Assembly (NCBI GenBank): GCA_045597645.1
Contig: JAZLKM010000027.1
Coordinates: 5,184-69,183, forward strand
Length of the DNA: 64,000 nt
Source: Lachnospiraceae bacterium
GTDB taxonomy: Bacteria; Bacillota; Clostridia; Lachnospirales; Lachnospiraceae
Direction of reading: 5' to 3'
The notes under the pieces were generated by a model. That model made no database searches, was not told the origin of the DNA, and saw only the letters and a list, made by a program, of their open reading frames with translations. Positions 1-46,819 of the stretch are shown one piece after another (positions within the stretch are counted from its first letter, which is position 1; each line of letters opens with the position of its first letter). Both the position numbers and the translations under genes were made by a program.

Positions 1-1
1 A

Positions 2-12082: not shown

Positions 12083-12090
12083 TCTATTAA

Positions 12091-15025: not shown

Positions 15026-15038
15026 TCCCGGTATCTTG

Positions 15039-16004: not shown

Positions 16005-16031
16005 TTTATATACCTCTCTAGCTAGGTCCCA

Positions 16032-17138: not shown

Positions 17139-17368
17139 TATTCCTCTATAAGTGACTCCATAAGTGCGATTATTTTGTCCTTATTTCCAAAATTATCTGC
17201 TATTACCAGGGATGCATCGATCTCGATTCCGAATTCCTCCTCCAGGCTGTATACAATGTCAATCAGTCCGAAGCTGTCGATTATGCCGTCCTCAATCATG
17301 TTGTCGCCGTCATAGTCGATAATCTCATCGTTAGCATCCTCAAGTATTGCCAGTATTCTCTCTTCCAT
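17138..17368 (-). CDS. Acyl/peptidyl carrier protein, DltC-like (D-alanyl carrier protein type)
   Basis: 76 aa, acidic. The phosphopantetheine Ser sits in IIDSFGLIDIV, the DSFG context typical of DltC. A good SD (GAGGAGA) lies 5 nt upstream. Confidence 0.8.
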   Translation of the reverse strand: MEERILAILEDANDEIIDYDGDNMIEDGIIDSFGLIDIVYSLEEEFGIEIDASLVIADNFGNKDKIIALMESLIEE

Positions 17369-17444
17369 AGCGTCTCCTCATTTATGCGGTTATAGTCCTA
17401 GCACCGCCCAATTTCTATTTTGCTTATAGCTATCAACTTATCAG

Positions 17445-18305
17445 CTAGTCAGCACTTGGTCTTGCTACAAGTGTCAATTTATAGTCTGCTGTCTTTTTGT
17501 ATCCAAACTCATCATGGAGCCTTAGTGAGGATATATTTTTCTCCTCCACCCAGGCATTTAGTCGCCGCACATCAGGGCGGGCTGAAACTATCTCTATGAG
17601 CCTTCGTTCAACCTGCTTCGAGTATCCTCTGCACCTCATATCGACGGGTGTATATACATATTCCTCTGTAGCTATTCCACTTTTTATCCTGTATATCGCA
17701 GCAGCACACAGCTCATCCGAAAGGCTTGCTATGACAATATCTGTCTCATCCATATAGGCCTGCAGTCTGCTTCTTGGTGGAAGCTGAGCCCCTATCGGGT
17801 CAAAGCAGTCATATATCTGCTCATAGGCTTCTATTGTCTTGTCTTCGGAAAATGTCACCTCGCTCTTGGCGCTTAATGCATCGGCACCCTCATTTTTCGG
17901 CTGCGCACTCACCTGCTGTAATTCACTCGCATGCAGTTTTATTTCATAGCGGTTGTATTTTTTTGCTGCCTCAAATCCATTTTGCAAAAGAGCTGCTGTA
18001 ACTTCGCTGCAGCGCTCCTTGCCAGTCTTCTCGTATATCTCAGTGATGACAGGCAGCTGTGTCTCGTACTCTGGCATCACATACTCAGTGGGCTTATTTG
18101 TGATAAAGTACAATCTGCACAGGTCATCCTGCTTCACCAACACGCTCACCGAATTATCACCCGCGGTCCACAGGACCTGCGTCATTTTGAGGCTGTCCTC
18201 TATCTCAGTGCCTATCATTGGATAATTGGTTACCACCCGACCGTCTGACTTTAGCCTTTTATATTCTTCTGCTATTAGATTTGCATCTGTGAGTACCTGC
18301 CACAT
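17445..18305 (-). CDS. GNAT-family acyltransferase with N-terminal extension
   Basis: 286 aa. The C-terminal region has GNAT motif-A-like RCRGYSKQVERRLIE and a downstream NISSLRLHDEFGY. Confidence 0.55.
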   Translation of the reverse strand: MWQVLTDANLIAEEYKRLKSDGRVVTNYPMIGTEIEDSLKMTQVLWTAGDNSVSVLVKQDDLCRLYFITNKPTEYVMPEYETQLPVITEIYEKTGKERCSEVTAALLQNGFEAAKKYNRYEIKLHASELQQVSAQPKNEGADALSAKSEVTFSEDKTIEAYEQIYDCFDPIGAQLPPRSRLQAYMDETDIVIASLSDELCAAAIYRIKSGIATEEYVYTPVDMRCRGYSKQVERRLIEIVSARPDVRRLNAWVEEKNISSLRLHDEFGYKKTADYKLTLVARPSAD

Positions 18306-18313
18306 ACTATTCC

Positions 18314-19831
18314 CTACAGATTTTCCTTCAGCTTTACTCTGTCTATCTTGCCGTTTGCGTTAAGTGGCATCACTGGTACATTTACCACCTTGCCAGGTAT
18401 CATGTATTCAGGCACCATCGTCTTTAGCTTTTCTGACACCCATGCCTTTTCTATAGCGGTCTCGCTCTCCACTATGAGTACAATACGGCTGTGCTTCTCG
18501 TCATATATACAGCAGCATCTAGGTATCTCATCCAGTGATGATGCCGCTGTCTCTATCTCGCCCAGCTCTATTCTGTGTCCCAGGTGCTTTATCTGAAAAT
18601 CCTTGCGGCAGGAGTAAAGTATCTCGCCTCTCTCATTGTAGGACACCAAATCTCCTGTCCTGTATATTTTTTCCTCATATACCGTGTTGAGTGGATTCTG
18701 CACAAAGGCTGCATCTGTCTTCTCAGGGTTGCCGTAATATCCTACAGCCAGCGATGTACCCTGCACACAGAGCTCTCCCACGATTCCAGGCTCTGTGATC
18801 AGCTTATCCTCGTCATCCAATAGAAGTATGCGAGTGTTCGGCATCGGACCACCTATGGGGAGTGTCTCATCATCGTCAAACTCTCTGTCCACTATGTAGA
18901 AGGTACATGCGTCCGTAATCTCTGTCGGTCCATAGAGATTGGCATATACTGCATTAGGTATAAAGCTCCTCCAATAGTTGAGCTGCTTATTGGGCATCAC
19001 CTCTCCGCAGAACAGTATGCGCTTTAATACGCTAGACATATCCACATTCTTTAGAGCTCGAAGCTTCGCCACGGCTATAAGTGCTGACGGTACCCAGAAA
19101 ATAGTATTGATATCATTTTCTTTTATGTACTCCAAAAGAGGTACCGGCTGTGAGAAGAGAGCTGACGGTATGATATATAACGTAGCTCCTGTCTTCATGC
19201 ATGAATAAATGTCGAGTATTGAGTTGTCAAAGTAAAATGGTGCCTGATTGCCAAAGGCATCTTCACTGGTAACTTCAAACTGCGATGTCACCCAGTCTGT
19301 GTAATCAATCACAGATCTGTGACGTATGCCTACTCCCTTTGGCACCCCAGTGGAGCCTGAGGTAAAGAGCACATATAGCAAATCCGTATCTAGTATCTGG
19401 GCTGTAGCCTTTGCTACATTGGCCTCGTCATCCGGAGCCGGTGTAACATCATCATAGATTATCACCTCTCCATCATATCCAAACTCTGCCAGACCGGCCT
19501 GTAGCTCTCTGGTAGTTATGATAATCTCCGGCTCTAATATCTCCAGGATTTTCTGCACTCTGCTGCTTGGCATGGTTACATCTATAGGTGAATAAAAATC
19601 CCCTGCATATGCGATACCTGCAAAGCATACTAGTACGCCCGTGCTTTTCTCCATATAGACAGCCACCGGCTTGCCACTCTCTGGTTGAATCTGTAGGACT
19701 TTTGCTGCAATTGCCTGCGCCATTTTGCGCCATTGTCCAAATGTCACCTGTCCATTCTCGTCTACCAGCGCCGCCTTATTTTCATATACTCTGGCAGTCT
19801 CGTCGAGCCATTGCGTTACATTAATCTGCAT
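18314..19831 (-). CDS. Adenylate-forming enzyme, DltA-like amino acid/hydroxy acid--carrier protein ligase
   Basis: 505 aa with ANL core motifs LFTSGSTGVPKGV, YGPTE, YRTGD and GKIDR. It is a stand-alone A domain of DltA size and the first gene after the promoter. Confidence 0.9.
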   Translation of the reverse strand: MQINVTQWLDETARVYENKAALVDENGQVTFGQWRKMAQAIAAKVLQIQPESGKPVAVYMEKSTGVLVCFAGIAYAGDFYSPIDVTMPSSRVQKILEILEPEIIITTRELQAGLAEFGYDGEVIIYDDVTPAPDDEANVAKATAQILDTDLLYVLFTSGSTGVPKGVGIRHRSVIDYTDWVTSQFEVTSEDAFGNQAPFYFDNSILDIYSCMKTGATLYIIPSALFSQPVPLLEYIKENDINTIFWVPSALIAVAKLRALKNVDMSSVLKRILFCGEVMPNKQLNYWRSFIPNAVYANLYGPTEITDACTFYIVDREFDDDETLPIGGPMPNTRILLLDDEDKLITEPGIVGELCVQGTSLAVGYYGNPEKTDAAFVQNPLNTVYEEKIYRTGDLVSYNERGEILYSCRKDFQIKHLGHRIELGEIETAASSLDEIPRCCCIYDEKHSRIVLIVESETAIEKAWVSEKLKTMVPEYMIPGKVVNVPVMPLNANGKIDRVKLKENL

Positions 19832-22539: not shown

Positions 22540-23715
22540 TTATCCAATAGACTTGTATATCTTCTCAATCTGACTTTCCACTATCTCTGTGGTAAATCCC
22601 TTTATCTTTTCCAGATTATATGCGCTCATGTCACTACGCTTCGCAATATCATCCGCCAGCTTTGCTATTGCCTTTGCATATCCCTCAACGTCGCATTTAT
22701 CTACAAGTATTCCACCTTTATCATCATCTATTAGGTCAACATTGCCTCGTATTTTGCTGACCACACAAGGCATACCTGCTGCCATGGCTTCCATCAATCC
22801 CACAGGAAGCCCCTCCTGCAGTGATGGAAAAACAAATATGTCAATGGCCCCGCACACCTGTGGTATGTCCGATCTAAACGACAATAGCTGCACCGTCTTT
22901 TGCAAAAGCTCACTGCCTGCTACTCGCTGAGCTATCTCCTGCTCCAGTTGGCCCATTCCGCATATGACGTACTTGATGTCACTTCTGCCCAATCGCTCCA
23001 AGGCATCCAATACGACCTTGTGATTTTTCCTAACGCTAAGCTCTCCTATGGACAAAAGACATATATCTTTCTCCTCCAGTCCCAACTCACTACGGATCTC
23101 ACTTCTCTGAGATTCTATATCACAGAATCTGTCAAGTTTCATTCCTACGCCAGGTACATACTCCGTATGTCTAGCGCGCAGCTTAGCGGTAGCCCTGTTG
23201 TAATCTTCTTGATTGATTGTGATCTGGACGTCTGTATAGCGACTGAGGTACTTTTCAACCGGGTAATATATAAGCCAATTCTTTTTTGATGCTCCCTCAA
23301 AAAAATGAAAGCCATGGGCTGTATATATAACCTTCATATCAGCGTGCTTTGCTGCCATCCTTGCCACAGCTGCACCTATTGGCGTGTGGCAGTGCATAAG
23401 GTCATACTGCTCTGCTTCAAACAGTCTCTTGCATTCCTTGTAAGAGCGAATGTGCTGGCTTAAGTTGACTGCTGATTTAGTGAATGATATCTGATGAGGC
23501 TTTATATTTTCCCCTTCTAACCAGCTTCTAAATTCCTCCAGCTTCGCCTTGGGCATTGGATTTTCTCCGCCAAAATCTGCTGCTATATGTACCTCATACC
23601 CCAGCTTTTTCAGTGTAAGCATATTTTCCTTACAAAAGCGTTCCAGGTGATATGCGGTATGTGCTAATACCAGTGCTTTTTTACTCATTCTTATTCTGGC
23701 TTCGTACATCGGCAT
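22540..23715 (-). CDS. Glycosyltransferase family 4
   Basis: Motif PSLQEGLPVGLMEAMAAGMPCVVSKIRGN. The ATG at 23715 has an AGGAAGG SD. The alternative ATG at 23688 (MSKKALVLAH) forms an ATGAGTAA overlap with the upstream stop. Confidence 0.85.
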   Translation of the reverse strand: MPMYEARIRMSKKALVLAHTAYHLERFCKENMLTLKKLGYEVHIAADFGGENPMPKAKLEEFRSWLEGENIKPHQISFTKSAVNLSQHIRSYKECKRLFEAEQYDLMHCHTPIGAAVARMAAKHADMKVIYTAHGFHFFEGASKKNWLIYYPVEKYLSRYTDVQITINQEDYNRATAKLRARHTEYVPGVGMKLDRFCDIESQRSEIRSELGLEEKDICLLSIGELSVRKNHKVVLDALERLGRSDIKYVICGMGQLEQEIAQRVAGSELLQKTVQLLSFRSDIPQVCGAIDIFVFPSLQEGLPVGLMEAMAAGMPCVVSKIRGNVDLIDDDKGGILVDKCDVEGYAKAIAKLADDIAKRSDMSAYNLEKIKGFTTEIVESQIEKIYKSIG

Positions 23716-25060
23716 CCATCTCGCCTTCCTGGAGTCCTTCTGTACTTTCCTTGGTAAATATTACTCTTATGGTTAGCAATATAAGCTGTAAATCTAATAG
23801 TATAGACTGCTTCTCAACATATATCATGTCCAGCTTGAGCTTATCGTACGATGTGGTGTTGTATTTACCATACACCTGTGCATAGCCTGTAAGGCCTGCC
23901 TTAACTCGCAATCTATATGCAAATTCCGGCACTTCTTCGCAGTATTTTGCTATAAGCTCCGGGCGCTCCGGACGAGGTCCAACTATACTCATATCACCTG
24001 CAAGTATGTTGAAAAACTGTGGCAACTCGTCTATCCTTGTAGCCCTAATGAATCTGCCTATAGGCGTGATGCGGCTGTCATGCTCCTGTGCCAGACGTAC
24101 CTCTCCCTTGGCCTCAGCATTCACTATCATGCTTCTGAATTTGATGAGCTTAAATTCCTTGCCGCCTAAGGTGCTTCTGGTCTGCTTGTAGAATACCGGG
24201 CCATCGTCGTACTTTTTCACAGCGATTGCCGTTATAAGCATTATTGGCGAAGTCAGAATTATACCGATAGATGCGATAACAATGTCTCCGATTCGCTTAA
24301 TCATTCTAAACCAGAATGAGGTCTGTCGGTTTCTTCTGTAGTAGATAGGTGTGTCGAATAGATCCAGCTCATTGGCACCTCTCACCATTATGTCTGAAAT
24401 CTTAGGTGTAAAGTACACCCTCTTCTTTCGTTCGAAGCAGTATTTCAGGACCGCATTCCTAATTTCTGCCGGCGTATCATTGATTAGAGTTGCATCATAC
24501 TCATCAATCTTGGCCTTAATTACATCTAGTGGTTCATCGCAGCTAATTTCCTCTGCAATCACATATTTATCGCGCCTTGAGTTCATCTTCTGCGGCAACA
24601 TATTAAAATGCTGGCCCGTAATCTGGAGCAGCTGATATGGTGGGAAAAGACTTCTCTGTAGTGATATCGCCACCATGGCTATGATAAATAGTGACACTGT
24701 CTGTACCAAAAACAGAATCACATATCCCACCAAAAGTCTCACTGCATGCTCCGCTGAGCCTGCAATAAGCATAGCGACCATCCAGTCTGCAAAGTCTGCT
24801 AACAGTGCCCCTATTGTAAGCGACAGTGCTATTCTATTGCGCCTATAGGAGCCTACCTTGTAGCCTCCCATCGCATAGAAAAATACAATAGTCAAAAAAG
24901 CATACACCGCGACTATCAGGAAATTTCCTCTGTGATCATATGCAGGCACCAGCTTTCCATTTACAAAATTACGCCAATAGAAATAGAACTCTGCCACAGA
25001 GGCCGCTGTAAGTATTAAGTTAACTATGTCATGATAGACCGCTCTGCCTGTTTCCTTCAT
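23681..25060 (-). CDS. Large polyprenyl-phosphate phosphoglycosyl transferase (second WbaP/CpsE-type copy)
   Basis: 459 aa with GPVFYKQTRS, KFRSM, RIDELPQFFNILAGDMSIVGPRPER and GLTGYAQV. It is a clear paralog of the 3581-4987 product. Confidence 0.9.
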   Translation of the reverse strand: MKETGRAVYHDIVNLILTAASVAEFYFYWRNFVNGKLVPAYDHRGNFLIVAVYAFLTIVFFYAMGGYKVGSYRRNRIALSLTIGALLADFADWMVAMLIAGSAEHAVRLLVGYVILFLVQTVSLFIIAMVAISLQRSLFPPYQLLQITGQHFNMLPQKMNSRRDKYVIAEEISCDEPLDVIKAKIDEYDATLINDTPAEIRNAVLKYCFERKKRVYFTPKISDIMVRGANELDLFDTPIYYRRNRQTSFWFRMIKRIGDIVIASIGIILTSPIMLITAIAVKKYDDGPVFYKQTRSTLGGKEFKLIKFRSMIVNAEAKGEVRLAQEHDSRITPIGRFIRATRIDELPQFFNILAGDMSIVGPRPERPELIAKYCEEVPEFAYRLRVKAGLTGYAQVYGKYNTTSYDKLKLDMIYVEKQSILLDLQLILLTIRVIFTKESTEGLQEGEMDADVRSQNKNE

Positions 25061-27362
25061 TTTTCCTTTTCAAAATGCCTAATACAATAAGTGTCAGCAA
25101 CGTCAATACCGACAATGCTTCTGATATTCTCCATAGTACCGGCTCTACAAACTTCACCTCAAAAGTGCCATTGTAATTGCCAGGTATCTTTACTGCCATA
25201 TATTTATTCGAGCCAGCATAAATTTCAAATGTCTGACCTGTAGCTATGTCCCTGGCTCTATATCCCTCATACATAAATATGGGGAGCTCTACCACATCCT
25301 CCACCTCAGAAGTGTTGGCGACTGTGTAGCTCTTGATGCCTCTATTCTCATCCACACCCAGTATCTGGGATGTACCATAGCATGATATGAGTCTCTGGTA
25401 ATACACCTGCGTATTCAAAGCTGTATCCGGCAGATACAGCAAGTCTGATGTATAGCTTATCGTATGGTCTGAAATAGTATTTTCCGCCTCAACATCATGA
25501 AGCAGATCTGATACATAACCGCCCTCCGATATCAGTGTCATAAGGACCATCACACCAGCTAAAGCCACAGCATAGTTTCTTCTCTCCGTGTGTGCTGCTA
25601 TCAAATACAGCGCCATAAGCCCTGCAAATACAGCCATTACTGTTGCGATAGTCAGATATCTCCATGGGAACTGCACCTTGCTGAGAGCACTGCCAAGTAC
25701 AGGTATGCGCTCCACTAAATCCCAAGGGAAAATATTAGATGACATCACAAGCGCTATCACACCGAACCAGAAGGTGGTATTAAGCACGGTATATTCTCTC
25801 TCGCATCCTGCCTTCCAGTCATTTTTCTTAATAAGACACGGGATGACCAAAAGCATTGCTATCACCAGTGCAAATCCTATAGCCATTGGCATCTCATCAT
25901 ACGCACTATCTAAGGCAGTCGCTCCTTGGCTCGGATGGAACACACCTAGAATCTGTGGCCACGTAGCTGCCTCTCCTGATATCTGATAATTGTAATGTTC
26001 GATGCGAAGGTCCATTTTCCTCATTGCGTCCACAAACGGAACTAGGAACCATGCGTTTATAAGCACTGTCGCTCCTGCCCCCTTCAAAAGGGTGAGCAAG
26101 CGCCCCTTCCTAAAGGTTTTCTTCCAGAAAATGAGAGCAAGAAGTACGCTGTACTCCGCTGCCATCATTGTAGTCAGTGTATGACATTCTATAATGCCAG
26201 AAAAAGCTACTACTATTGGAAGTACATCTTTAAAAGTGAATTTCTCATCGTCAGCTTTGGTATATATTTTGTAAAATCCGTATATCAGAAGTGGCAGGAA
26301 TATCTGCGCGGTATACTCTCCCAGTGAAGTTCGGTTATAAATATTCGTCATATGGTACGCACTGCATGTGTACAAGAATGCACCCAAAAGCCCGTACTTT
26401 CTACTGCCAAACATCTTCTTTATACAATAATATGCCACCAGGCACATTGCTATATTGGTTGCAACTAAATATGAATTATAAGCTACATACAGTGGACATC
26501 CCAATATGTAAAGCACCGCCGGAAATGTCAAAAACAGTTCGCCGTAAAACAGTGGTGATATGTATCCATAGCCATTGTTCCACGAATATTGTATACGATG
26601 TGGTATCTGTCTATCTCTGATTGCTTCTGCCAGAAGTGCTATTCTATTCACATGAAACTGCATATCATGACCATAGAACAGCTTACCGGCCCATACCAGT
26701 GCGCTGGAAAATACAACTACTGCAACAAGCCCTACACAGATAGCTTTCTGCTCAGCACTCGCTTCAAACAACTCTCCAGTCATATAGCAGATAAACGCAT
26801 TTACTGCCGTAATGAGCAGCAGCACTGCCATTACTCTCATCAGTCTGTAGATGTAATTCTCTGATATAGTAATGGAGTTAACCGACAGTAATCCATCTCC
26901 ATGATAGATTACATCTACATCCACATCATTGTATACAAAACCAGACTTTAACCATATGTGATCCTGTGAGACTGTACCGTCGTCCCTGAGTTTAATCTCA
27001 TTGGACAGCACGCCACTATTGCTATTATGCTTGGTAAATAGTACCTCTCCTGCAAAATCCCCATGGCTATGCTCAGTGCCATACTCAGATGAATAATTTA
27101 TTATGACATGATATCTGCCTGGCTCCATATGACTGATGCGATGTCCAAATATCGACTCCTTGGGACTTCCTGCTCTGGTAACTCCCAGTCCTCCATCGTC
27201 ATACAACTCCAGATCCTCCACATACCTTCTCTCAAAGTCCTGTGGGTACAGTGTGATATCCGGCTGCTTTGGAATTAATAGCATCACATAATAGAGTAAT
27301 ACTATTATTTCGATTATTATCGCCACAAAAAGCGGCTTATTTTTCCAAATTCTGCTAATCAA
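25029..27362 (-). CDS. Large polytopic membrane protein, GT-C/YfhO-like architecture (paralog of 37578-39794)
   Basis: 777 aa. Architecture is TM1, a ~170-aa extracytoplasmic domain, a block of more than 10 TMs, a ~140-aa beta-rich domain, then a terminal TM. It shares these blocks with its paralog: IPHR..NNGYGY.SPLFY.ELFL, GSRK.G, SLGEYTA, VQFPWRYLTIATV. Confidence 0.5.
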   Translation of the reverse strand: MISRIWKNKPLFVAIIIEIIVLLYYVMLLIPKQPDITLYPQDFERRYVEDLELYDDGGLGVTRAGSPKESIFGHRISHMEPGRYHVIINYSSEYGTEHSHGDFAGEVLFTKHNSNSGVLSNEIKLRDDGTVSQDHIWLKSGFVYNDVDVDVIYHGDGLLSVNSITISENYIYRLMRVMAVLLLITAVNAFICYMTGELFEASAEQKAICVGLVAVVVFSSALVWAGKLFYGHDMQFHVNRIALLAEAIRDRQIPHRIQYSWNNGYGYISPLFYGELFLTFPAVLYILGCPLYVAYNSYLVATNIAMCLVAYYCIKKMFGSRKYGLLGAFLYTCSAYHMTNIYNRTSLGEYTAQIFLPLLIYGFYKIYTKADDEKFTFKDVLPIVVAFSGIIECHTLTTMMAAEYSVLLALIFWKKTFRKGRLLTLLKGAGATVLINAWFLVPFVDAMRKMDLRIEHYNYQISGEAATWPQILGVFHPSQGATALDSAYDEMPMAIGFALVIAMLLVIPCLIKKNDWKAGCEREYTVLNTTFWFGVIALVMSSNIFPWDLVERIPVLGSALSKVQFPWRYLTIATVMAVFAGLMALYLIAAHTERRNYAVALAGVMVLMTLISEGGYVSDLLHDVEAENTISDHTISYTSDLLYLPDTALNTQVYYQRLISCYGTSQILGVDENRGIKSYTVANTSEVEDVVELPIFMYEGYRARDIATGQTFEIYAGSNKYMAVKIPGNYNGTFEVKFVEPVLWRISEALSVLTLLTLIVLGILKRKNEGNRQSGLS

Positions 27363-27363: not shown

Positions 27364-28542
27364 CTAGTATTTTCTCCAAACCATCTTGTCTACTACGCCT
27401 GTGTAGCTCTGAATTATCTTAACCACCTTGGTGGATACATTTTCCTCCACGTAATCTGGCACAGGAATTCCTGTCTGTCCATCCTCGTTGAGGGTAACTG
27501 CTGTGTCTACAGCCTGCAGAAGTGACTTCTCATCAATGCCTGCCAGAATAAAGCATGCCTTGTCCAGTGCTTCCGGTCTCTCTGTTGAAGTGCGGATGCA
27601 TACTGCAGGGAACGGATGTCCCACGCTGGTGAAAAAGCTGCTCTCCTCCGGGAGAGTGCCGCTGTCTGAGACTACTGCAAATGCATTCATCTGCAGGCAG
27701 TTGTAATCATGAAAGCCAAGTGGCTCATGCTGAATTACTCTCTCATCGAGCTTAAATCCGCTGTCTGCTATGCGCTTTTTACTTCTTGGATGGCATGAGT
27801 AGAGTATTGGCATATCATACTTTTGCGCCATCTTATTTATAGCTGTAAAAAGAGATGTGAAATTCTTTTCAGTGTCAATATTCTCTTCTCTATGTGCTGA
27901 GAGAAGTATATATTTTCCAGCCTCCAAATTGAGCCTTGAAAGAATATCTGAGGCCTCTATCTCCTCTAAATTCTTGTGAAGTACCTCCGCCATAGGTGAA
28001 CCCGTCACGTAGGTGCGCTCCTTTGGAAGTCCACAGTCCGCCAGATACCTTCTGGCATGCTCTGAATATGCCATATTTACATCAGATATTATGTCAACTA
28101 TTCTCCTGTTAGTCTCTTCCGGCAGGCACTCATCCTTACATCTGTTGCCCGCCTCCATGTGGAAAATCGGTATATGTAACCTCTTTGCCGGAATAGCTGA
28201 AAGGCATGAGTTGGTGTCTCCCAATATGAGCAGGGCATCCGGCTTTATCGCTGCCATCAGCTTATATGAGGCATCAATTATGTTCCCTATATTCTCTCCC
28301 AGGTCTGCGCCAACTACATCCATATAGACCTCAGGATCCTCAAGCTTAAGATCCTTGAAAAACACTCCATTTAGGTTGTAGTCATAGTTCTGACCAGTAT
28401 GCGCCAGTATCACATCAAAATACTTACGGCACTTGGTAATAACCGCTGACAACCTGATTATCTCAGGTCTTGTACCCACAATAATTAGAAGCTTAAGTCT
28501 TCCATCATTTTTGAATTGAATATCTGAGTAGTCTGTTTTCAT
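27364..28542 (-). CDS. fnlC: UDP-N-acetylglucosamine 2-epimerase (non-hydrolysing) family, FnlC/CapG-type (UDP-L-PneNAc -> UDP-L-FucNAc)
   Basis: 392 aa. LKLLIIVGTRPEIIRLS is the CapG/FnlC-type N-terminus. FnlA and FnlB homologs lie upstream in the same unit. Confidence 0.8.
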   Translation of the reverse strand: MKTDYSDIQFKNDGRLKLLIIVGTRPEIIRLSAVITKCRKYFDVILAHTGQNYDYNLNGVFFKDLKLEDPEVYMDVVGADLGENIGNIIDASYKLMAAIKPDALLILGDTNSCLSAIPAKRLHIPIFHMEAGNRCKDECLPEETNRRIVDIISDVNMAYSEHARRYLADCGLPKERTYVTGSPMAEVLHKNLEEIEASDILSRLNLEAGKYILLSAHREENIDTEKNFTSLFTAINKMAQKYDMPILYSCHPRSKKRIADSGFKLDERVIQHEPLGFHDYNCLQMNAFAVVSDSGTLPEESSFFTSVGHPFPAVCIRTSTERPEALDKACFILAGIDEKSLLQAVDTAVTLNEDGQTGIPVPDYVEENVSTKVVKIIQSYTGVVDKMVWRKY

Positions 28543-28895
28543 TACTTCGCCTTCTGTTCCATGTACTCATAGATGTCCTTCATAGTGATGACATCAACCA
28601 ATGCAAAATCTTTGTCCACCACGGGCATCATGGTAATCTGCTTTACTTTAAACTTGTCGTATGCCTTCTCAAGATTTTTCTCTGTCATATACATAAATGA
28701 CGGATTGATGATACCTGATACCTTGTTGAAAAGACTGGTTCCAGCGCTCAAAGCTCTAATGATATCACCCTGACTTACTACTCCTATTACCTTATCACTA
28801 CTTGATAATACAATAGCTACGCGCTCGTGATTTTTCTCAAAATTCTCTATCGTCTCTTTGATGGTATAGTCCTCATAGACGCAATGTAGATCCAT
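28542..28895 (-). CDS. CBS-domain pair protein (stand-alone)
   Basis: The track ORF extends to 29003 and overlaps the radical SAM gene. The in-frame ATG at 28893-28895 is preceded by TAAGGAGGGACTT. The resulting 117-aa product has two CBS-like repeats (VIGVVSQGDIIRAL; MMPVVDKDFALVDVITMKDI). Confidence 0.7.
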   Translation of the reverse strand: MDLHCVYEDYTIKETIENFEKNHERVAIVLSSSDKVIGVVSQGDIIRALSAGTSLFNKVSGIINPSFMYMTEKNLEKAYDKFKVKQITMMPVVDKDFALVDVITMKDIYEYMEQKAK

Positions 28896-28905
28896 AAGTC
28901 CCTCC

Positions 28906-29886
28906 TTATTTCTGCAGCTGAATTCTGTCAAAGCAATTTGCACAGCACTCAATGCGACCCAGCTGGCCCTTAGTGATAATATCTCTATACTGATTAGCTG
29001 CATAGCTATTAAACAGCTGCTTCATGTCCATATCCATAATATTTCCAATTATCATGAAGTTGTCGTAGTCAGCGCAGCACAATGTGGCATCTCCGTTCCA
29101 GTTGAAGGACAGCTTATCATACACCTCTGCGCACACCTGACGGCGTACCTTTTCTAGGCTCTCTTGCTCCTTGAGCTCGCGGATTTTCTGCTTCTCCTCC
29201 TCAGGAATATTCATAGCATCGACATTGATGTGCGACAGCTGTGTGTAGCCCACATTATAATAATCGCAATAGTCAGCTACATCTGCCTTAAACAGCTCTA
29301 CGTCCTCAGCAGTCTCTCCTGTTATAGAAGTACTTATCTGAATGTACGGAAGAGCTCTGTCGCCACGCAGCTCATGGAACTTATGTATGCGACGGAGAAG
29401 ATTAGCATAATCTCCACCATGGCGCATCTCATTGTAGGTACCCTCAGTAGCGCCCTGGAACGAGAACTTGATGCTGTCAAGACCTGCGTCAATCAGCTCT
29501 GCCATCTGCTCGTCAGTAAGTATTGAACCGTTATTATTAAAATGCACCAGCGTGCCTGTTGCCTTGAATTTTTTAACAATCTCTACAAACTTAGGATGGA
29601 ATGTGGGCTCTCCCCAGCGGCTAAAACGTACTCCCTCAATTTTGTACTTAGCGACATTTTCCACAAGTCTGTCTACCACCTCATCACTCATGTAGCCCTT
29701 GGTACGCTTTAAGCTATGTGTACCGGTTGGGCAGAATCTGCATGAGAAATTACAGCAGTTTGTGGGCTCAACATCAATATATCTGGGTACAGTTACGATA
29801 CCCTTTTTGATGAGGTCATATTTTTCTTCGTTAGTACCATTATTACAAGCCTTGTATATTGGTACAAATGGGTTCTCTCTGGTCAT
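28906..29886 (-). CDS. Radical SAM enzyme with C-terminal SPASM/twitch-like auxiliary cluster domain
   Basis: 326 aa. CNFSCRFC gives the CX3CX2C motif. A C-x12-G-x4-C motif (CAEVYDKLSFNWNGDATLC) and a terminal CCANC are also present. Confidence 0.85.
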   Translation of the reverse strand: MTRENPFVPIYKACNNGTNEEKYDLIKKGIVTVPRYIDVEPTNCCNFSCRFCPTGTHSLKRTKGYMSDEVVDRLVENVAKYKIEGVRFSRWGEPTFHPKFVEIVKKFKATGTLVHFNNNGSILTDEQMAELIDAGLDSIKFSFQGATEGTYNEMRHGGDYANLLRRIHKFHELRGDRALPYIQISTSITGETAEDVELFKADVADYCDYYNVGYTQLSHINVDAMNIPEEEKQKIRELKEQESLEKVRRQVCAEVYDKLSFNWNGDATLCCADYDNFMIIGNIMDMDMKQLFNSYAANQYRDIITKGQLGRIECCANCFDRIQLQK

Positions 29887-29895: not shown

Positions 29896-31062
29896 TTAGT
29901 ACATAAGCTTTTTGATAAGCCACTTGTCGTCCACCTTTGTCTCCAAAAGGAGCTTAAGTATGCGCTCTGATGAGTGTCCGTCTCCATACGGATTCTCACA
30001 TTCCCTGTTCAGGTAATCTGTAAACTCAGGAGAGATAGCCTTATTGATTGCCTCTACTATCTTCTCCTCAGAAAATTCTACATCAATGACGTTGATTCCT
30101 CTGTATCTCATGTTCTGTCTACGTCCTATATTGACTGCTGCCTTCTTGAATGTAGGCGCCTCCAATAGTCCTGAGCTTGAATTACCAACAATGCATCTGG
30201 AATTTTTCAAAAATCCCAGATAGTCCTCTCTCTTCATGTTGGAAAACAGGTGGTACTCCCCGCTGCGTCCCTCAAGAATAGCATTCTTTACAAGGTTTGA
30301 ACCCGCATCGTTGTTCGGAAGTATTACTATCTTGGGCATGTCAAACCTATTTAGCGAGCGCACAAATATCTCTGCCTGCTCTCCTGCCTTGTCTGCCTCC
30401 TCCGTAACAGGATGCATTACCGCCAGCATATATCCATTCTGAAGCTCCAGTGAGTACTTATCCTCAAGCTCCTTCAACGGAGTGAACTGTGCACCTACCA
30501 TCTCATCAAGCTGCGGTGCTCCCACGTTAAAGATTCTAAACTCTTCCTCGCCAAGCTTACGGAGTCTTTCTGCTGCATCTTCATTTGCCGCAAAATGCAT
30601 ATGGACTAACTTTCCAATAGCATGTCTGGTCATACCATCTATATTGCCTGACAGCTCACCTGCCTGTATATGCGCTACTGGAGTGTATGTATAAGCTGCA
30701 GCCACTGCGCCCATCAATTGCTCGCCTCTGTCTCCTGCCAGAAGTACCCAGTCCGGTCTCTCCTTGTCCAGAATATCCGGCAAGCTATTGAGGCAGATGC
30801 CCAGTGACTTCGCCTGAGTATAGTGATTGTAGCCGTCCAATGACATATGTATCTTGTAGTCAATGGTGAAGCCATCACGCTCTATCTCCTTGTAGGAGCT
30901 GCCGTAGCTCTCCAACAGATGCATATTTGTTACCACCAGAATCGGCTTTACCTCATCCGGGTGCTGCTGCATGAGTCGCATTATGGGACGTATATACCCC
31001 CACTCGCCTCGTGAGCCTGTTAGGATCATTATCTTCTTCAAAATACTATGCCTCCAAATCAT
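29896..31062 (-). CDS. neuC: UDP-sugar 2-epimerase (hydrolysing), NeuC/LegG family, second copy
   Basis: 388 aa with ILTGSRGEWGY, GDRGE, HIQAGELSGNIDG, GNSS and NIGRRQ. An alternative start lies at 31029. Confidence 0.8.
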   Translation of the reverse strand: MIWRHSILKKIMILTGSRGEWGYIRPIMRLMQQHPDEVKPILVVTNMHLLESYGSSYKEIERDGFTIDYKIHMSLDGYNHYTQAKSLGICLNSLPDILDKERPDWVLLAGDRGEQLMGAVAAAYTYTPVAHIQAGELSGNIDGMTRHAIGKLVHMHFAANEDAAERLRKLGEEEFRIFNVGAPQLDEMVGAQFTPLKELEDKYSLELQNGYMLAVMHPVTEEADKAGEQAEIFVRSLNRFDMPKIVILPNNDAGSNLVKNAILEGRSGEYHLFSNMKREDYLGFLKNSRCIVGNSSSGLLEAPTFKKAAVNIGRRQNMRYRGINVIDVEFSEEKIVEAINKAISPEFTDYLNRECENPYGDGHSSERILKLLLETKVDDKWLIKKLMY

Positions 31063-32077
31063 CCATAGACAGAAGTACGTTCTCGTCTACATCCTTTGCA
31101 AGTGTCCTGCCGATGATTTCATTCATCTTGTGTGACGGGATACCTGTTCCCGGTCTTTTTGACCAAATCATATCCTGAGTGATTACCTCGCCCTTCTTAA
31201 GTGGGCGTCTGGTTACAATTGATCTAAATGCCCACTCTCTTATGCTCTTCTCATTGTCATGAACAGCCTTCTCGCATCCCATGGCTGCCTCAATTTTCCT
31301 GGTGCCATCACAGAGCATGTACAGGTCATGAAAATCAATGGATACAGTCTGGTCTGGTCCCGGAGTCTGCTTGCTGAGAATGACATGCTTCTCTATGATT
31401 GCTGCCCCCATAGCTACTGCTGCGTAGCAGGTATAAAGGTCAGGCGTATGATCGGAATGTCCTATTACAGCCTTCGGGAAGGCCTTCTTCATCTCACCGA
31501 TGACGCCAAGATTTACATCCTCGTACTTCGGTGGGTACTCAGACAGGCAATTGGTAAATGCCAGCGGTACACCTGTAGGAACCAAAGCATCATAGGTGCG
31601 CTTGATCTCATCCATGGTGCACATACCTGTGGATACAATCATAGGCTTGCCAAACTCTGCAATTCTTACAAGCGATGGTATATCGGTCATCTCACCTGAG
31701 CCAATCTTAAAGCAGTCTACTCCTATCTCATTGAGTTCACATGCTGCCTTGTAGCTAAAAGGTGTGCACATATACTGGATGCCTATCTCCTTGCAGTAGG
31801 CCATAAGCTCTACATGCTGATCCAGTGTAAGTGCATGAAGCTTCAAAAACTCGTACAGTGGAATGTCAAAGTTGGATGACATCGGTACATCCTTCAGCAT
31901 CTCCTCATCCGGCAGATGATGCTGAAACTTAATGCAGTCTGCACCGGCCAGCTTAGCCTGACGGCACATTTCCTTGGCTGCATCCATATTTCCCATATGA
32001 TTGTCACAGCCCTCAGCTATCACGTAAGCCGGAGCCCCATCACCTATTTTTCTACCTGCAATCTCAATCTGTGGCAT
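31046..32077 (-). CDS. neuB: Nonulosonate synthase, NeuB/LegI family, second copy (divergent; KFQHH variant) with SAF domain
   Basis: Motifs YVIAEGCDNHMG, KFQHH and GHSDH, plus a C-terminal SAF-like tail. The track start at 32098 is TTG. The ATG at 32075-32077 has an AGAGGGG SD and lies 1 nt from the upstream stop. Confidence 0.85.
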   Translation of the reverse strand: MPQIEIAGRKIGDGAPAYVIAEGCDNHMGNMDAAKEMCRQAKLAGADCIKFQHHLPDEEMLKDVPMSSNFDIPLYEFLKLHALTLDQHVELMAYCKEIGIQYMCTPFSYKAACELNEIGVDCFKIGSGEMTDIPSLVRIAEFGKPMIVSTGMCTMDEIKRTYDALVPTGVPLAFTNCLSEYPPKYEDVNLGVIGEMKKAFPKAVIGHSDHTPDLYTCYAAVAMGAAIIEKHVILSKQTPGPDQTVSIDFHDLYMLCDGTRKIEAAMGCEKAVHDNEKSIREWAFRSIVTRRPLKKGEVITQDMIWSKRPGTGIPSHKMNEIIGRTLAKDVDENVLLSMDDLEA

Positions 32078-32078
32078 A

Positions 32079-32762
32079 TCAACCCCTCTTTTCCTCAATG
32101 AATGCGCCGGCTATAACCAAATCAACCGGCTCGTTTATATCTACGCCTTCCTTCTCTGAAATGACGAATCCGTTCACATTATTACCGAGCACGCTATGCT
32201 TTTCTCTAAGCGCCTTGGCATCTGTTATATAAATGCAGCTGTCCTCCAAATATATGGGTTCTCTGTCCTGACGACGCCTTGGAGCATTTGGGAAAAGCCT
32301 TCCAAACTTATCCTCACGGCACACCCAGTAGTCTCCTCTGCACTCTGTCAGTGTGAGCTGCGCATCATACTTATCTGCATTTTTTTCATAATTTTCTATG
32401 AATGCTTTGACTGTTTCAGGTGTGCGCATTGGAGATGTCGGCTGAAGCGTTATTACAGTATCATACTCCTTGCCGTATTTTTCCTTCATGTAGTCCAGAG
32501 CATGTATTAGTGCATCCTCTGTGCTCGCTGTATCCACTGCCAGCTCATCCGGCCTTTTTATCACGATAACTCCCTCGTGACCTGCCGCCACCTCTGCGAT
32601 GTCATCCGCATCAGTGCTGACTGTTATATCACCATCTATGCCTGCTGCCAAAGCTGTCTCCAGCGTGTATGAAAGCAATGGCTTGCCACACAGTGGATAG
32701 ATATTTTTCTTCGGTATTCCCTTTGAACCGCCTCGGGCCGGTACTACTACCAGATGCTTCAT
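32079..32762 (-). CDS. Nonulosonate cytidylyltransferase (CMP-NulO synthetase), second copy
   Basis: 227 aa with VVVPARGGSKGIPKKNI. Confidence 0.85.
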   Translation of the reverse strand: MKHLVVVPARGGSKGIPKKNIYPLCGKPLLSYTLETALAAGIDGDITVSTDADDIAEVAAGHEGVIVIKRPDELAVDTASTEDALIHALDYMKEKYGKEYDTVITLQPTSPMRTPETVKAFIENYEKNADKYDAQLTLTECRGDYWVCREDKFGRLFPNAPRRRQDREPIYLEDSCIYITDAKALREKHSVLGNNVNGFVISEKEGVDINEPVDLVIAGAFIEEKRG

Positions 32763-35094: not shown

Positions 35095-36345
35095 TTATAC
35101 CGTTTCAAAAAATGTATCCGGTCTGCCTGGGTCAAACTGCTCGTTGGCCCACATAAGTGTCACCATTTCCTCAGTATCGCTCAGATTTTCTATATTGTGC
35201 GTGTATCCTGGCAGCATCTGGACTGCTTGAAGTTTCTTACCTGATACTCTAATTTCTGTCACAGGATACGGCTCGCCATTCTCATCCAGCCCTATCTTCC
35301 TTTCGCGGATGATTCCCTCACCCGCCACAACTATGAATATCTCCCACTTGCTGTGGTGCCAGTGATTGCCCTTGGTTATTCCCGGTTTTGAGATGTTTAC
35401 GCTAAACTGGCCATTGCCCAGGGTCTTTAGCACCTCAGTAAAGCTACCTCTGTCATCGCATTTCATCTCGAACGGATATATCATTTTCTCTGCCGGCAGA
35501 TACGAAAGATATGTCGAATAAAGCCGCTTCTCAAAGGAATCATCCGGTATAGCCGGCATAATCAATGTAGCTGGCTGCGACGTAAAGCTCTCTATCGCCT
35601 CAACTATCTGACCCAGATTTCTCTTGAATGTGATTGGCACATAACAGTATTTTCCTGTTGGATCTCCTACCGCTTCTGCACCCTCAAATCTACATCTGTG
35701 CTCCTTGCCGCCAATAGCGCCAAGTAGCTCCTCCACCAAGTCATCCACATACAGAAGCTCCAGCTCCACACTTGGATCATTTACCTGTATCGGCAGGTCG
35801 TTAGCTATGTTATTACAAAAGGTCGCCACTGCTGAATTATAGTTGGGTCTGCACCATTTTCCAAACAGATTAGGAAACCTATATATCAAAGCTCTGGCGC
35901 CAGTATCATTCGCATACTTGAAAAACAGTTCCTCTCCCGCCAGCTTGCTCTTGCCATACTCAGAGCCGGCAAAGCGCCCCTCGAGAGTTGCCTGTGTAGA
36001 CGACGACAGCATCACCGGACAGGTGTTATTATATTTTTTTAATGTGTCAAGTAACTCTGACGAAAATCCAAAATTACCTTCCATATACTCTGACTGGTCT
36101 TTTGGCCTGTTTACCCCAGCTAAATGAAATACAAAGTCTGCCTTATGACAGTACTCCTCCAGCTCTTCCTTGGTATTATCTATGTCATAAGAAAATATCT
36201 CAAGACCGCCCTCCGGCAGCCAGGAGCGTTCCCTTCTGTCCTTACCATCCCGTATATTTTCCAGAGAGCAGATTAGATTTTTTCCAAGAAAGCCCTTCGC
36301 TCCTGTCACAAGTATTTTATATGTATTATTCTTATCTTTATTCAT
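35095..36345 (-). CDS. fnlB: CapF/FnlB-type bifunctional reductase/epimerase (SDR domain plus C-terminal cupin), UDP-L-FucNAc pathway
   Basis: 416 aa with VTGAKGFLGKNL, FGKWCRPNYNSAVATFC, LYSTYLSYLP, DDRGSFTE, VNISKPGITKGNHWHH and GYTHNIENL. It matches remembered S. aureus CapF blocks closely. Confidence 0.9.
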   Translation of the reverse strand: MNKDKNNTYKILVTGAKGFLGKNLICSLENIRDGKDRRERSWLPEGGLEIFSYDIDNTKEELEEYCHKADFVFHLAGVNRPKDQSEYMEGNFGFSSELLDTLKKYNNTCPVMLSSSTQATLEGRFAGSEYGKSKLAGEELFFKYANDTGARALIYRFPNLFGKWCRPNYNSAVATFCNNIANDLPIQVNDPSVELELLYVDDLVEELLGAIGGKEHRCRFEGAEAVGDPTGKYCYVPITFKRNLGQIVEAIESFTSQPATLIMPAIPDDSFEKRLYSTYLSYLPAEKMIYPFEMKCDDRGSFTEVLKTLGNGQFSVNISKPGITKGNHWHHSKWEIFIVVAGEGIIRERKIGLDENGEPYPVTEIRVSGKKLQAVQMLPGYTHNIENLSDTEEMVTLMWANEQFDPGRPDTFFETV

Positions 36346-36378: not shown

Positions 36379-37581
36379 TTAATTTGCCACCTTATCGATT
36401 AGCTCCACATATTTGCCGAGCTGATCTGACATGTTATAGCACGTCACCGCACGCTTCCTGCAGGTAGCTGATGAATACATTCCGTTGGCATATGACCTCA
36501 TGCTTATATGTCTTATTGCGTCCATCATTGAGTCCATATCGCCTCTATGTACTGCAAGTCCTGTTATCTCATCTATCACTTCAGGGCTGCCTCCTGTAGC
36601 AAATGTTACCACAGGTGTACCGCACGCTAATGCCTCTATATTTACAGTCGGGAAAGTGTCCTCCAACGTAGTATTGACGAACACATCCGCCGCGGTATAT
36701 ATCTCCGCCAGTTCTATAGCATCCTCCGTCCTTGAGATTACTGTCACTCTGTCAGACAGCGCCTCCCGGTCCTCCTGGGACATATTTCCCACGATAACCA
36801 TGTGTTCATTACTCTCAAGCCTATTTGTTATTTCCTTTAGAAAATCTATTCCCTTTCGTCTGGTCCAGTTAGACGCCACTGCCAAATATATCTTCTTGTC
36901 ACCCAGCCCATACATAGTACGAAAATCTGATTCTCTGGGTTTAAAGGTCTCCAGGTCTATCCCATTGTTTATCACCTCTACAGGATATTTCCCTAGAAAT
37001 GATGACCTTACCTGCTGCTCCATCCACCTTGATGGTGCTACCACCGTCAGCTTTTGTCCATCGAGCACCAGCTTCTTACGTCTAAAGTTTGCTGCACCTG
37101 TGGACTTAAACATACTATAGCTATGACTTATTGGGCAGCTATTGCAGCCTGTCCTGTAGCCGTCACACTCGATCCCATCATAGTGCGCACAGCCACCTGT
37201 AAAAGCCCAGCAGTCATGGAATGTCCACATTACTTTTATCTGCTTACCCCTTAAGTAGCCCAGCAAAGTCTCCATGTTACAGTCATGAGTATGAATATTA
37301 TGCAGATGCACTATATCGGGCTGTATCTTATCCAGTTGCTTTATTATTTTTCTAGTCGATGCCTTTGAGTTGAATCCATATTTTCCGTTAATTCTGGATA
37401 TTATGGCCTGCCTTTTTATGTATCCTGGGTTGGAATAGCAATATTCATTTTCCCCTTCTGGTTCACCGCTTCCAAACAGGAAATAGTTCTCTATTCCAGC
37501 GCTGGTCAGCAACCTACATATATTAGTGCAGATGCCTCCTGTGCTTCCGCCTTTTACAGAATTGATTAATACTACCTTCAT
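36379..37581 (-). CDS. Glycosyltransferase family 4
   Basis: I prefer the ATG at 37579-37581. It forms an ATGA overlap with the upstream stop and has a GGAAGGTGG SD 7 nt upstream. The track start is 37632. Motifs: WTFHDCWAFTGGCAHY, AEIYTAADVFVNTT. Confidence 0.8.
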   Translation of the reverse strand: MKVVLINSVKGGSTGGICTNICRLLTSAGIENYFLFGSGEPEGENEYCYSNPGYIKRQAIISRINGKYGFNSKASTRKIIKQLDKIQPDIVHLHNIHTHDCNMETLLGYLRGKQIKVMWTFHDCWAFTGGCAHYDGIECDGYRTGCNSCPISHSYSMFKSTGAANFRRKKLVLDGQKLTVVAPSRWMEQQVRSSFLGKYPVEVINNGIDLETFKPRESDFRTMYGLGDKKIYLAVASNWTRRKGIDFLKEITNRLESNEHMVIVGNMSQEDREALSDRVTVISRTEDAIELAEIYTAADVFVNTTLEDTFPTVNIEALACGTPVVTFATGGSPEVIDEITGLAVHRGDMDSMMDAIRHISMRSYANGMYSSATCRKRAVTCYNMSDQLGKYVELIDKVAN

Positions 37582-46818: not shown

Positions 46819-46819
46819 T

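Follow-up and report, generated by a model that had tools for sequence, protein, structure and literature searches.

A twitch-type radical SAM enzyme recurrent in nonulosonic acid loci and inserted between neuC and a CBS gene of a Lachnospiraceae polysaccharide locus: a candidate nonulosonate-tailoring enzyme

Nonulosonic acids (NulOs), which include the sialic, legionaminic and pseudaminic acids, are displayed on bacterial capsules, lipopolysaccharides (LPS) and flagella and influence immune recognition. To our knowledge, the described neuraminic (Neu), legionaminic (Leg) and pseudaminic (Pse) acid pathways consist of two-electron enzymes and contain no radical S-adenosylmethionine (SAM) step. 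Here we analyze a radical SAM gene in a 64,000-nt stretch of Lachnospiraceae DNA (contig JAZLKM010000027.1; hereafter the window), all genes of the region lying on the minus strand. The gene is part of a tightly packed module transcribed in the order neuA, neuB, neuC, radical SAM gene, CBS gene, so that NeuC, NeuB and NeuA are encoded together. Based on gene neighbourhoods, fusions, cysteine conservation and fold comparison, we propose with moderate confidence that its product is a twitch enzyme of a NulO-accessory family that would act on a nonulosonate, with epimerisation as the favoured reaction and with the CBS protein serving a separate purpose. The parts of this proposal differ in strength. 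That it is a tailoring enzyme of the NulO pathway is probable; epimerisation as the specific reaction is a tentative assignment, and dehydrogenation a still more doubtful one.

The 326-aa protein carries the triad C45-x3-C49-x2-C52 within CCNFSCRFC, followed by C252-x12-G265-x4-C270 and a C-terminal C314-C315-A-N-C318. Re-reading the sequence reproduced the coordinates and sequence features that an initial annotation, made from the sequence alone, had given for this open reading frame (ORF) and for the CBS ORF. The Pfam matches to Radical_SAM (PF04055, E = 7.9e-24, 85.1 bits, cut-off 29.5) and SPASM (E = 6e-9, 36.5 bits, gathering cut-off 21.5) are far beyond chance. The CX3CX2C triad is kept in 97-100% of 37 family members, which together with the profile score places the protein in the radical SAM superfamily. 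None of the NCBIfam models reaches its own cut-off on the 326-aa protein. The top score, 96.4 bits against a cut-off of 380, belongs to the tungsten (W)-cofactor maturase model TIGR04317 and covers the N-terminal half only. The MoaA models remain at 56.2 (NF001199, cut-off 231), 54.4 (TIGR02666, 284) and 52.3 bits (TIGR02668, 325), which rules out an identity as MoaA (GTP 3',8-cyclase). Scores below the NCBIfam cut-offs likewise rule out PqqE, mycofactocin, WgkB, anSME-like and W-cofactor maturase identities, and viperin and BlsE as family assignments. The profile search thus places the enzyme as twitch-like and within no curated NCBIfam family. The initial annotation had considered that it might prove to belong to a peptide-maturase or cofactor family; no curated family of either kind claims it.

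The 37 members used for the conservation alignment are 29-65% identical to the window protein. Exactly four C-terminal cysteines of ligand type are kept across them (C252, C270, C315 and C318), plus C271 (95%). The spacing, with C252, G265 and C270 followed by C315-x2-C318, is that of the twitch subclass (CX9-15GX4C plus a distal CX2C), and the four cysteines indicate ligands for one predicted auxiliary cluster. The full SPASM subclass, which has two auxiliary clusters, is ruled out because CX2CX5CX3C is missing and only these four positions and C271 are conserved. The family-specific residues are R61, W91, H97, H115, the strand S138-I-K-F-S-F-Q-G145, R155, R174, T215, W263 and R301. R61, K140, R155, R174 and R301 vary little or not at all, and a basic set of this kind would suit an anionic substrate.

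A profile built from 14 family members was used to search the sequences of the PDB. BtrN came first (E = 6e-14) with the runner-up at 1e-8, both its core and its C-terminal domain being aligned; BlsE was found at E = 3.4e-7. C270, C315 and C318 align with C187, C232 and C235 of BtrN (chain 4m7s_A) and D273 with D190, and the position of C271 is Phe in BtrN. The AlphaFold2 (AF2) model of the 326-aa protein has a pLDDT of 88.9 and a pTM of 0.88. With this model, the top three Foldseek matches in the PDB were BtrN, BlsE and DesII; peptide maturases and MoaA rank lower, and SkfB, SuiB, PqqE and EpeE, which are maturases of peptides made on the ribosome and modified after translation (RiPPs), are among the fold matches. 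The identity to the solved fold relatives is 14-19%, and 16% to BtrN. The substrates of these three radical SAM enzymes, BtrN, BlsE and DesII, are all sugars or resemble sugars. The twitch character and the likeness to BtrN, both noticed in the initial annotation, hold by profile as well as by fold.

BtrN, the 2-deoxy-scyllo-inosamine (DOIA) dehydrogenase of butirosin biosynthesis (PDB 4M7T/4M7S), shares with the window enzyme the core, the short twitch domain and one fully Cys-ligated auxiliary [4Fe-4S] cluster, the last being predicted here, and its substrate is a small carbohydrate-like molecule. In contrast, BtrN is about 60 residues shorter (deposited chains of 269-270 aa versus 326) and lacks an equivalent both of the N-terminal NPFxxIYxxCN segment conserved in the family and of C271. 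Its gene lies among aminoglycoside genes, whereas that of the window enzyme lies among nonulosonate genes. The low identity and the NulO and polysaccharide neighbours in place of a 2-deoxystreptamine cluster rule out a BtrN orthologue. BlsE (cytosylglucuronate decarboxylase, 7VOB) and DesII (8HZV), second and third in the fold search, differ from the window enzyme in their nucleoside or TDP-sugar substrates and in lacking a NulO-locus context, besides the low identity.

An indication of function comes from the company that the family keeps. A word-indexed search returned 490 homologues at E<=1e-10, and a profile search over 1.84 billion cluster representatives returned 886 at E<=1e-30, cousin families included. 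For 79 loci from species-representative genomes, ORFs of at least 70 aa were called and the neighbours clustered and labelled, and counts were taken over the 40 loci in which the homologue reaches 29% identity. NeuA, NeuB or NeuC lies within 10 kb of the radical SAM gene in half of them (20/40), and NeuA is the immediate neighbour in six. At least one gene of the labelled set, made up of NulO or amino-sugar genes (PtmE-like CBS-nucleotidyltransferase, LegB/PseB-type dehydratase, DegT, PglD-type, PseA-like, Maf), methyltransferases and B12-radical SAM genes, lies within the same distance in 30/40. By a rough estimate, the chance of a random gene lying that near a NulO cluster is about 1%. Clostridium tetanomorphum (L015) has a full Leg operon in the order PtmE-NeuA-NeuB-NeuC-PglD-LegB-radical SAM-DegT, L017 has PtmE-LegB-PglD-PglD-NeuB-NeuC-NeuA-radical SAM-PseA-like, and a flagellin island of Lachnospiraceae KH1P17 (L004/L016) has NeuB-PseA-like-NeuC-NeuA-methyltransferase-Maf-radical SAM-carbamoyltransferase. 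In the window, as in most related loci, the genes around the radical SAM gene encode the enzymes of the canonical pathways (NeuC/NeuB/NeuA; PtmE-LegB-LegC-LegH-LegG-LegI-LegF). The family extends through Bacillota, Spirochaetota, Planctomycetota, Pseudomonadota (magnetotactic and sulfate-reducing), Verrucomicrobiota-related bacteria and a Thermoplasmatales archaeon.

A metagenome scan with the single window protein as query gave no match, and 15 loci were obtained with an alignment-based scan. At 66% identity, the nearest relative found (L103) follows NeuB...NeuC-NeuA with one small reverse-strand ORF between NeuA and the radical SAM gene. L105 (64%) has NeuB-NeuC-DegT-radical SAM paralogue-NeuA-radical SAM, the NeuA gene adjoining the family member, L102 is a complete Leg operon, and in L093 a PtmE-like gene lies directly upstream of the radical SAM gene. 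Gut metagenome contigs (L090-L092) carry a repeated flagellin-DUF8042 (126 aa)-radical SAM unit beside a gene for a 617-aa Maf (MptE-like) protein, and the two radical SAM copies of L090 are 100% identical. The small DUF8042 protein was rejected as a conserved partner, as it has no homologue in the other loci or the window. Since the family is found in flagellin/Maf islands (L016, L090) and in the Wzx/Wzy locus of the window, the common denominator is the sugar and not the acceptor. The family therefore appears to be a recurrent accessory of Leg- and Neu-type loci that serve capsule-type polysaccharide synthesis and flagellin glycosylation.

Several loci hold further radical SAM genes. A paralogous SPASM/twitch enzyme (about 23-27% identical, 334-369 aa) is encoded directly upstream of the family member in L010, L022, L033, L044 and L105. 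The paralogue of L013 has 586 aa, with a long N-terminal extension that is cytidylyltransferase-like by eye only. In L043, a NeuA-like cytidylyltransferase (10846-12021, 391 aa), whose C-terminal part is HAD-phosphatase (KdsC)-like by eye only, adjoins the radical SAM gene. Long radical SAM 'fusions' in L021, L034 and L050 were discarded as ORF-calling artefacts in high-GC DNA.

Genuine fusions point in the same direction as the neighbourhoods. The 702-aa protein P0213 joins NeuB, SAF, Radical_SAM and SPASM domains, and over 294 aa its radical SAM half shares 30% identity with the window enzyme, keeping the FSFQG strand, H97, H115, R155, C270-C271 and D273. In a sister enzyme (27% identity), the fusion partner is a NeuA-like cytidylyltransferase domain. 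Searched with P0213, the fusion partners of NeuB were found to include NeuA, NeuC, PglD-type and DegT proteins, and also formyltransferase, methyltransferase and B12-radical SAM domains. Since these partners include recognisable enzymes of the NulO pathway, a protein fused to NeuB can reasonably be taken to belong to the pathway. Two other NeuB fusions were not taken as evidence for the family: P0387, at 26% identity and lacking the CC motif, is no closer than a sister SPASM enzyme, and P0375 shows no relationship. P0213 is the sole NeuB fusion that counts for the family proper. The NeuB fusions of various lineages (P0397, P0404 and others) also have GFO/IDH oxidoreductase, SGNH hydrolase and AP_endonuc_2 domains as partners, and as a whole they form a minable catalogue of candidate NulO-tailoring activities. 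P0213 lies in a NulO cluster (L109; ENA ERZ26661914 NODE_73, 1-18109) with three further radical SAM genes, the four being two of SPASM type, one of B12 type and the NeuB::radical SAM fusion itself. The cluster also encodes a fusion of NTP-transferase, CBS and GHMP-kinase domains, a thiamine pyrophosphate (TPP) enzyme and a phosphoenolpyruvate (PEP) mutase, which would indicate phosphonate decoration. The initial annotation had tied the enzyme to nonulosonate metabolism by its position in a single locus. For the family, this link is upheld by gene neighbourhood in many phyla and by the NeuB fusion. Co-localisation and fusion across lineages mark the enzyme as a NulO accessory, for which catalysis on a NulO is predicted.

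We then turn to the CBS protein. The junction between the radical SAM and CBS genes reads AAA TAA GGAGGG ACTT ATG, with 10 nt between the genes; as the initial annotation had stated, the Shine-Dalgarno sequence of the CBS gene includes the radical SAM stop codon. PF00571 matches the CBS ORF as two repeats (E = 1.8e-15, 57.4 bits, cut-off 24), and the protein consists of the CBS pair only, in agreement with the free-standing domain described earlier. Its 34 homologues likewise stand alone, at about 118 aa (range 112-132 aa). Four of them were looked up and gave seven loci (L084-L087, L110-L112), in each of which CBS is the gene immediately after neuC (neuA-neuB-neuC-CBS or neuB-neuC-CBS-neuA) and in none of which a radical SAM gene is present. 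The window module is orthologous to these modules, with identities of 67-79% for NeuB, 71-75% for NeuC, 52-60% for NeuA and 54-58% for CBS. Conversely, no stand-alone CBS gene occurs in the 79 radical SAM loci from species-representative genomes, where the CBS matches are N-terminal domains of PtmE-like proteins or a DegT fusion. These two observations rule out a functional pair of radical SAM and CBS proteins, which the initial annotation had implied. Of the gene order that it had suggested to be conserved, the association of the radical SAM gene with neuA, neuB and neuC recurs in other genomes and that with the CBS gene does not.

Because orthologous neuA-neuB-neuC-CBS modules exist without it, the radical SAM gene represents an insertion that separates neuC from the CBS gene. 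The insertion is seamless, with spacers of 9-10 nt and its own Shine-Dalgarno sequence. The GC content of the gene is 0.443 against 0.441 for the window, and both GC and GC3 (third codon positions) are like those of the neighbouring genes, so that no signal of recent transfer was found by these measures. The CBS protein is not a partner of the enzyme. It is probably a nucleotide-binding regulatory subunit, and we would guess that it serves NeuC or the module. It is known that CBS pairs bind adenosyl or cytidyl ligands. Its best NCBIfam match is the CBS part of the GutQ/KpsF sugar-phosphate isomerases, and the N-terminal CBS pair of the PtmE-like CBS-nucleotidyltransferases of Leg loci is about 30% identical to it. 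Unlike the PtmE-like and KpsF/GutQ proteins, however, it has no catalytic domain and belongs to a family of its own that always follows neuC in the loci examined, which makes it a separate lead towards the regulation of NulO synthesis. A PtmE-like identity is ruled out by the CBS-only content, by the size of the protein and its homologues, and by the next gene, which overlaps its stop codon by 1 nt. That next gene had been read as a second NeuC-like gene in the initial annotation. The NCBIfam scores revise this to the WecB type, as the protein reaches only 55.9 bits with the NeuC model and exceeds the cut-off of TIGR00236 (Table 1).

Which nonulosonate does the module make? In L086 and L087, the neuABC-CBS module stands beside a separate Leg-type set (PtmE-like, SDR, PglD, NeuB, NeuC, NeuA), and in L085 it stands without a second NulO set. 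The module on its own suggests a Neu5Ac (N-acetylneuraminic acid)-like sugar made straight from UDP-GlcNAc, and the module of the window may make such a sugar. PglF-like, LegC-family and NeuD/PglD-type genes lie about 17 kb upstream in the window, and their products could supply a di-N-acetyl-trideoxyhexose for Leg synthesis. The radical SAM relatives are mostly in Leg-type clusters, whereas the module of the window appears to be of Neu type. The two skeletons, Neu and Leg, share the D-glycero-D-galacto configuration and carry a hydroxyl at C4 as well as at C8. If one enzyme serves Neu- and Leg-type loci, its target would be a feature common to both, so that C4 or C8 is our guess.

Reactions of BlsE, DesII, NeoN and AprD4 begin with hydrogen abstraction at a sugar ring carbon. 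NeoN and AprD4 act on aminoglycosides; NeoN and EpeE are precedents for the return of a hydrogen from a Cys, NeoN in the epimerisation of a sugar. In the proposed mechanism, the window enzyme would cleave SAM reductively to a 5'-deoxyadenosyl radical, which would remove the hydrogen of a sugar C-H in the nonulosonate that the neighbouring NeuC, NeuB and NeuA produce. The substrate would be the free NulO or CMP-NulO, because these are handled by both fusion partners and because NeuA adjacency is frequent. The attacked position would probably be a carbinol carbon common to Neu and Leg. As the first choice, the non-ligand Cys271 would return a hydrogen on the opposite face, giving epimerisation in the manner of NeoN and EpeE; alternatively, an electron would be lost through the auxiliary cluster to give a keto sugar, as in BtrN. 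The resulting NulO variant would then be installed by the transferases of the locus, the gene itself having presumably come in between neuC and CBS as a single-gene cassette. Epimerisation is slightly favoured because the gene moves and inserts alone, because there is no dedicated reductase or aminotransferase, and because C271 has no BtrN counterpart. The clean lone insertion, together with single copies near a transposase or recombinase, favours a redox-neutral reaction that needs no partner.

Several observations weigh against a nonulosonate-epimerising enzyme. The main weakness of the case is the solitary copies. Ten of the 40 loci have no labelled sugar-pathway gene within 10 kb, and these include most of the closest relatives (59-63% identity). 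Among them are loci of Paraclostridium sordellii, two gut Lachnospiraceae, a Spirochaetaceae metagenome-assembled genome, Muribaculum, Gastranaerophilales and Selenomonadaceae. The two gut Lachnospiraceae copies adjoin a serine recombinase, the Selenomonadaceae copy is flanked by the genes of a PaaK-like ligase and an ACT protein, and P0002, the closest protein of the database search (65%), lies beside an ISL3 transposase. In a neighbour-joining tree, the solitary copies are nested among NulO-linked members (L017, L014), and the window protein branches with L010, L016 and L013, all NulO-linked. Our reading is that the solitary copies would be secondary relocations of a self-sufficient single-gene cassette. 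Compared with their counterparts in other radical SAM-linked loci, the window NeuA, NeuB and NeuC show no more than 31-39% identity, so that the enzyme would need to accept a different NulO here or act on a shared feature. C207 is invariant in close relatives, yet only 57% conserved across the 37 members. The low identity to solved relatives does not allow the reaction outcome to be transferred, and the role given to C271 is a guess. The case as a whole is genomic and sequence-based.

A BtrN-type anaerobic dehydrogenase, which would convert a secondary alcohol of the NulO or of a hexosamine to a ketone with the auxiliary cluster as the electron outlet, is unlikely. The modification could end with the ketone, or the ketone could serve an aminotransferase or reductase as a handle. 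In favour of this reading, BtrN is the best relative by sequence and fold and has the same four-Cys auxiliary pattern. DegT aminotransferases adjoin the radical SAM gene in L014, L015 and L022 and are one gene off in L013, which recalls the BtrN/BtrS pair of butirosin biosynthesis. However, the DegT protein of L015 is the only LegC candidate of that pathway, no extra aminotransferase or reductase travels with the gene in the window or in the solitary copies, and the conserved Cys271 has no counterpart in BtrN. The enzyme might also act earlier, on a UDP- or GDP-GlcNAc derivative or on the free 2-acetamido-mannose made by NeuC, the change being carried into the NulO by NeuB. Such early action, which we consider improbable, would fit the position of the gene directly after neuC in the window, the PtmE-like gene directly upstream in L093, the TDP-sugar substrate of DesII, a top fold match, and five loci (L022, L035, L041, L042 and L050) in which the gene is next to LegB, DegT or PtmE-like genes with no NeuA, NeuB or NeuC seen within 10 kb. 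Against it, the NeuB fusion and the frequent NeuA adjacency point to the product of NeuB and the substrate of NeuA, and the window module needs no adjacent precursor genes of LegB/LegC type.

Could the closeness to sugar genes be incidental? A hitch-hiking mobile cassette without a NulO role, or a mis-annotated MoaA-like cofactor or maturase enzyme, is very unlikely. The closest homologues are solitary, some of them beside the ISL3 transposase or serine recombinase, and some database entries name relatives 'molybdenum cofactor biosynthesis protein A'. Yet the inserted gene is in frame with the operon and has short spacers, its own Shine-Dalgarno sequence and the GC content of the window, the MoaA scores are far below their cut-offs, and in the tree the window protein groups with NulO-linked members, the solitary copies being nested inside a NulO-linked clade. 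We give the least credence to a modifier of peptides or proteins, either a RiPP-type SPASM maturase or a flagellin modifier. The Pfam SPASM match, the RiPP maturases among the fold matches and the position of the gene between flagellin genes in L090-L092 would agree with it. On the other side, the protein has the cysteines for one auxiliary cluster, the NCBIfam peptide-maturase scores are far under the cut-offs, no recurrent small ORF (70 aa or longer) lies beside the gene in the clustered loci, the window is a capsule-type Wzx/Wzy polysaccharide locus in which no flagellin was found, and the top three fold matches are sugar enzymes.

The O-antigen of Legionella pneumophila is a legionaminic-acid polymer. 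No report of a radical SAM step in NulO synthesis was found in full-text literature searches for a link between radical SAM enzymes and NulOs. What comes nearest are annotations only: ORF 13-c, a strain-variable radical SAM gene in the LPS locus of L. pneumophila Sg1 (PMC3766260), and phase-variable radical SAM genes of Campylobacter fetus (PMC6321876). Both are strain-variable and are listed with sugar-modification genes. The architecture of the window enzyme appears to be a known one, that of twitch radical SAM carbohydrate enzymes, the pathway would be new for radical chemistry, and no characterised family fits. The presence of the family in NulO loci implies undescribed NulO structures or routes in anaerobes, and the breadth and consistency of the association would surprise a NulO specialist. 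Taken further, a mobile single-gene twitch enzyme would add a radical SAM step after NeuB and epimerise, oxidise or deoxygenate Neu- or Leg-type sugars to uncatalogued NulOs, carried by capsules and flagella of anaerobes from many phyla, and the gene would act as a serotype-converting cassette. We regard this wider proposal as evenly poised. If it is true, related loci that hold between two and four distinct radical SAM genes, such as L109, would mark a whole layer of radical NulO chemistry. The neuABC module exists naturally with and without the radical SAM gene, which offers a ready comparison, and the family provides a clonable candidate for finding such NulOs.

Table 1. Genes of the window discussed in the text, in order of position.
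Feature	Position	Strand	Remarks
Bac_transf initiating polyprenyl-phosphate sugar transferase	3581-4987	(-)	
D-2-hydroxyacid dehydrogenase, second NulO module	4987-5955	(-)	
CTP_transf_3 (NeuA-like), second NulO module	5962-6663	(-)	
NeuC-type, second NulO module	6715-7872	(-)	TIGR03568 358 bits
NeuB, second NulO module	7872-8924	(-)	~20 kb downstream of first module
BFO_1060-like 'surface carbohydrate biosynthesis' protein, second NulO module	8972-10330	(-)	TIGR04396; candidate NulO transferase
DltA-like amino-acid adenylation enzyme and GNAT-domain protein	17445-19831	(-)	505 aa (DltA-like), TIGR01733 335 bits
Bac_transf initiating polyprenyl-phosphate sugar transferase	23681-25060	(-)	
Multi-pass membrane protein	25029-27362	(-)	777 aa
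WecB/FnlC-type non-hydrolysing 2-epimerase, outside NulO module	27364-28542	(-)	TIGR00236 213.7 bits (cut-off 210.15)
Stand-alone CBS-pair protein	28542-28895	(-)	117 aa from internal ATG; fourth gene of the neuA-neuB-neuC-CBS module
Radical SAM enzyme, twitch-type	28906-29886	(-)	326 aa; Pfam Radical_SAM + SPASM; NulO-associated family without characterised member
NeuC, hydrolysing UDP-HexNAc 2-epimerase	29896-31062	(-)	TIGR03568 381 bits (cut-off 235.9); 71-75% identity to NeuC of CBS modules
NeuB-family nonulosonate synthase	31046-32098	(-)	Pfam NeuB (227 bits) + SAF; 67-79% identity to L084-L087 NeuB
CMP-nonulosonate synthetase, NeuA-like, CTP_transf_3	32079-32762	(-)	PF02348 73.7 bits; 52-60% identity to L084-L087 NeuA
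FnlB/WbcJ-like reductase	35095-36345	(-)	
Multi-pass membrane protein	37578-39794	(-)	738 aa
FnlA-like	39794-40822	(-)	TIGR04130 486 bits, under cut-off 730
Wzx	41896-43404	(-)	
EpsG-type polymerase	43404-44492	(-)	
TviB/TviC-like UDP-GlcNAc dehydrogenase and epimerase	45844-48136	(-)	
Bac_transf initiating polyprenyl-phosphate sugar transferase	49856-50503	(-)	
Protein with N-terminal HAD domain	50506-52416	(-)	636 aa; 430-aa remainder without assignment
LegC-family aminotransferase	52471-53655	(-)	
PglF-like dehydratase	53659-55542	(-)	

The NeuB of the radical SAM-bearing module scores 302 bits with TIGR03569, under the equivalog cut-off of 399.65. The second, divergent NulO module (4987-10330) is only 31-36% identical to this first module. 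The scores in Table 1 rule out the epimerase beside the CBS gene as a second NeuC, and it probably serves as the FnlC of an N-acetyl-L-fucosamine (L-FucNAc) pathway, whose FnlA-like, FnlB/WbcJ-like and WecB/FnlC-like genes are scattered in the locus. The three Bac_transf genes, Wzx, the polymerase and many glycosyltransferase genes (GT2, GT4 and GT8), with every identified gene on the minus strand, suggest three polysaccharide loci in tandem.

The two large membrane proteins, one in each half of the locus, are paralogues, 33% identical over the full length and with 8 (777 aa) and 11 (738 aa) hydrophobic segments. Neither has a Pfam or NCBIfam match, and they could represent an undescribed polymerase, ligase or GT-C-like family. 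Between 45844 and 55542, a PglC-like transferase and a NeuD/PglD acetyltransferase are encoded besides the genes listed in Table 1. This region could provide bacillosamine-type and N-acetylgalactosaminuronic acid (GalNAcA)-type sugars and could also feed Leg synthesis. Finally, the DltA-like adenylation enzyme and the adjoining GNAT-domain protein, placed within the polysaccharide locus, hint at an aminoacyl decoration of the glycan.

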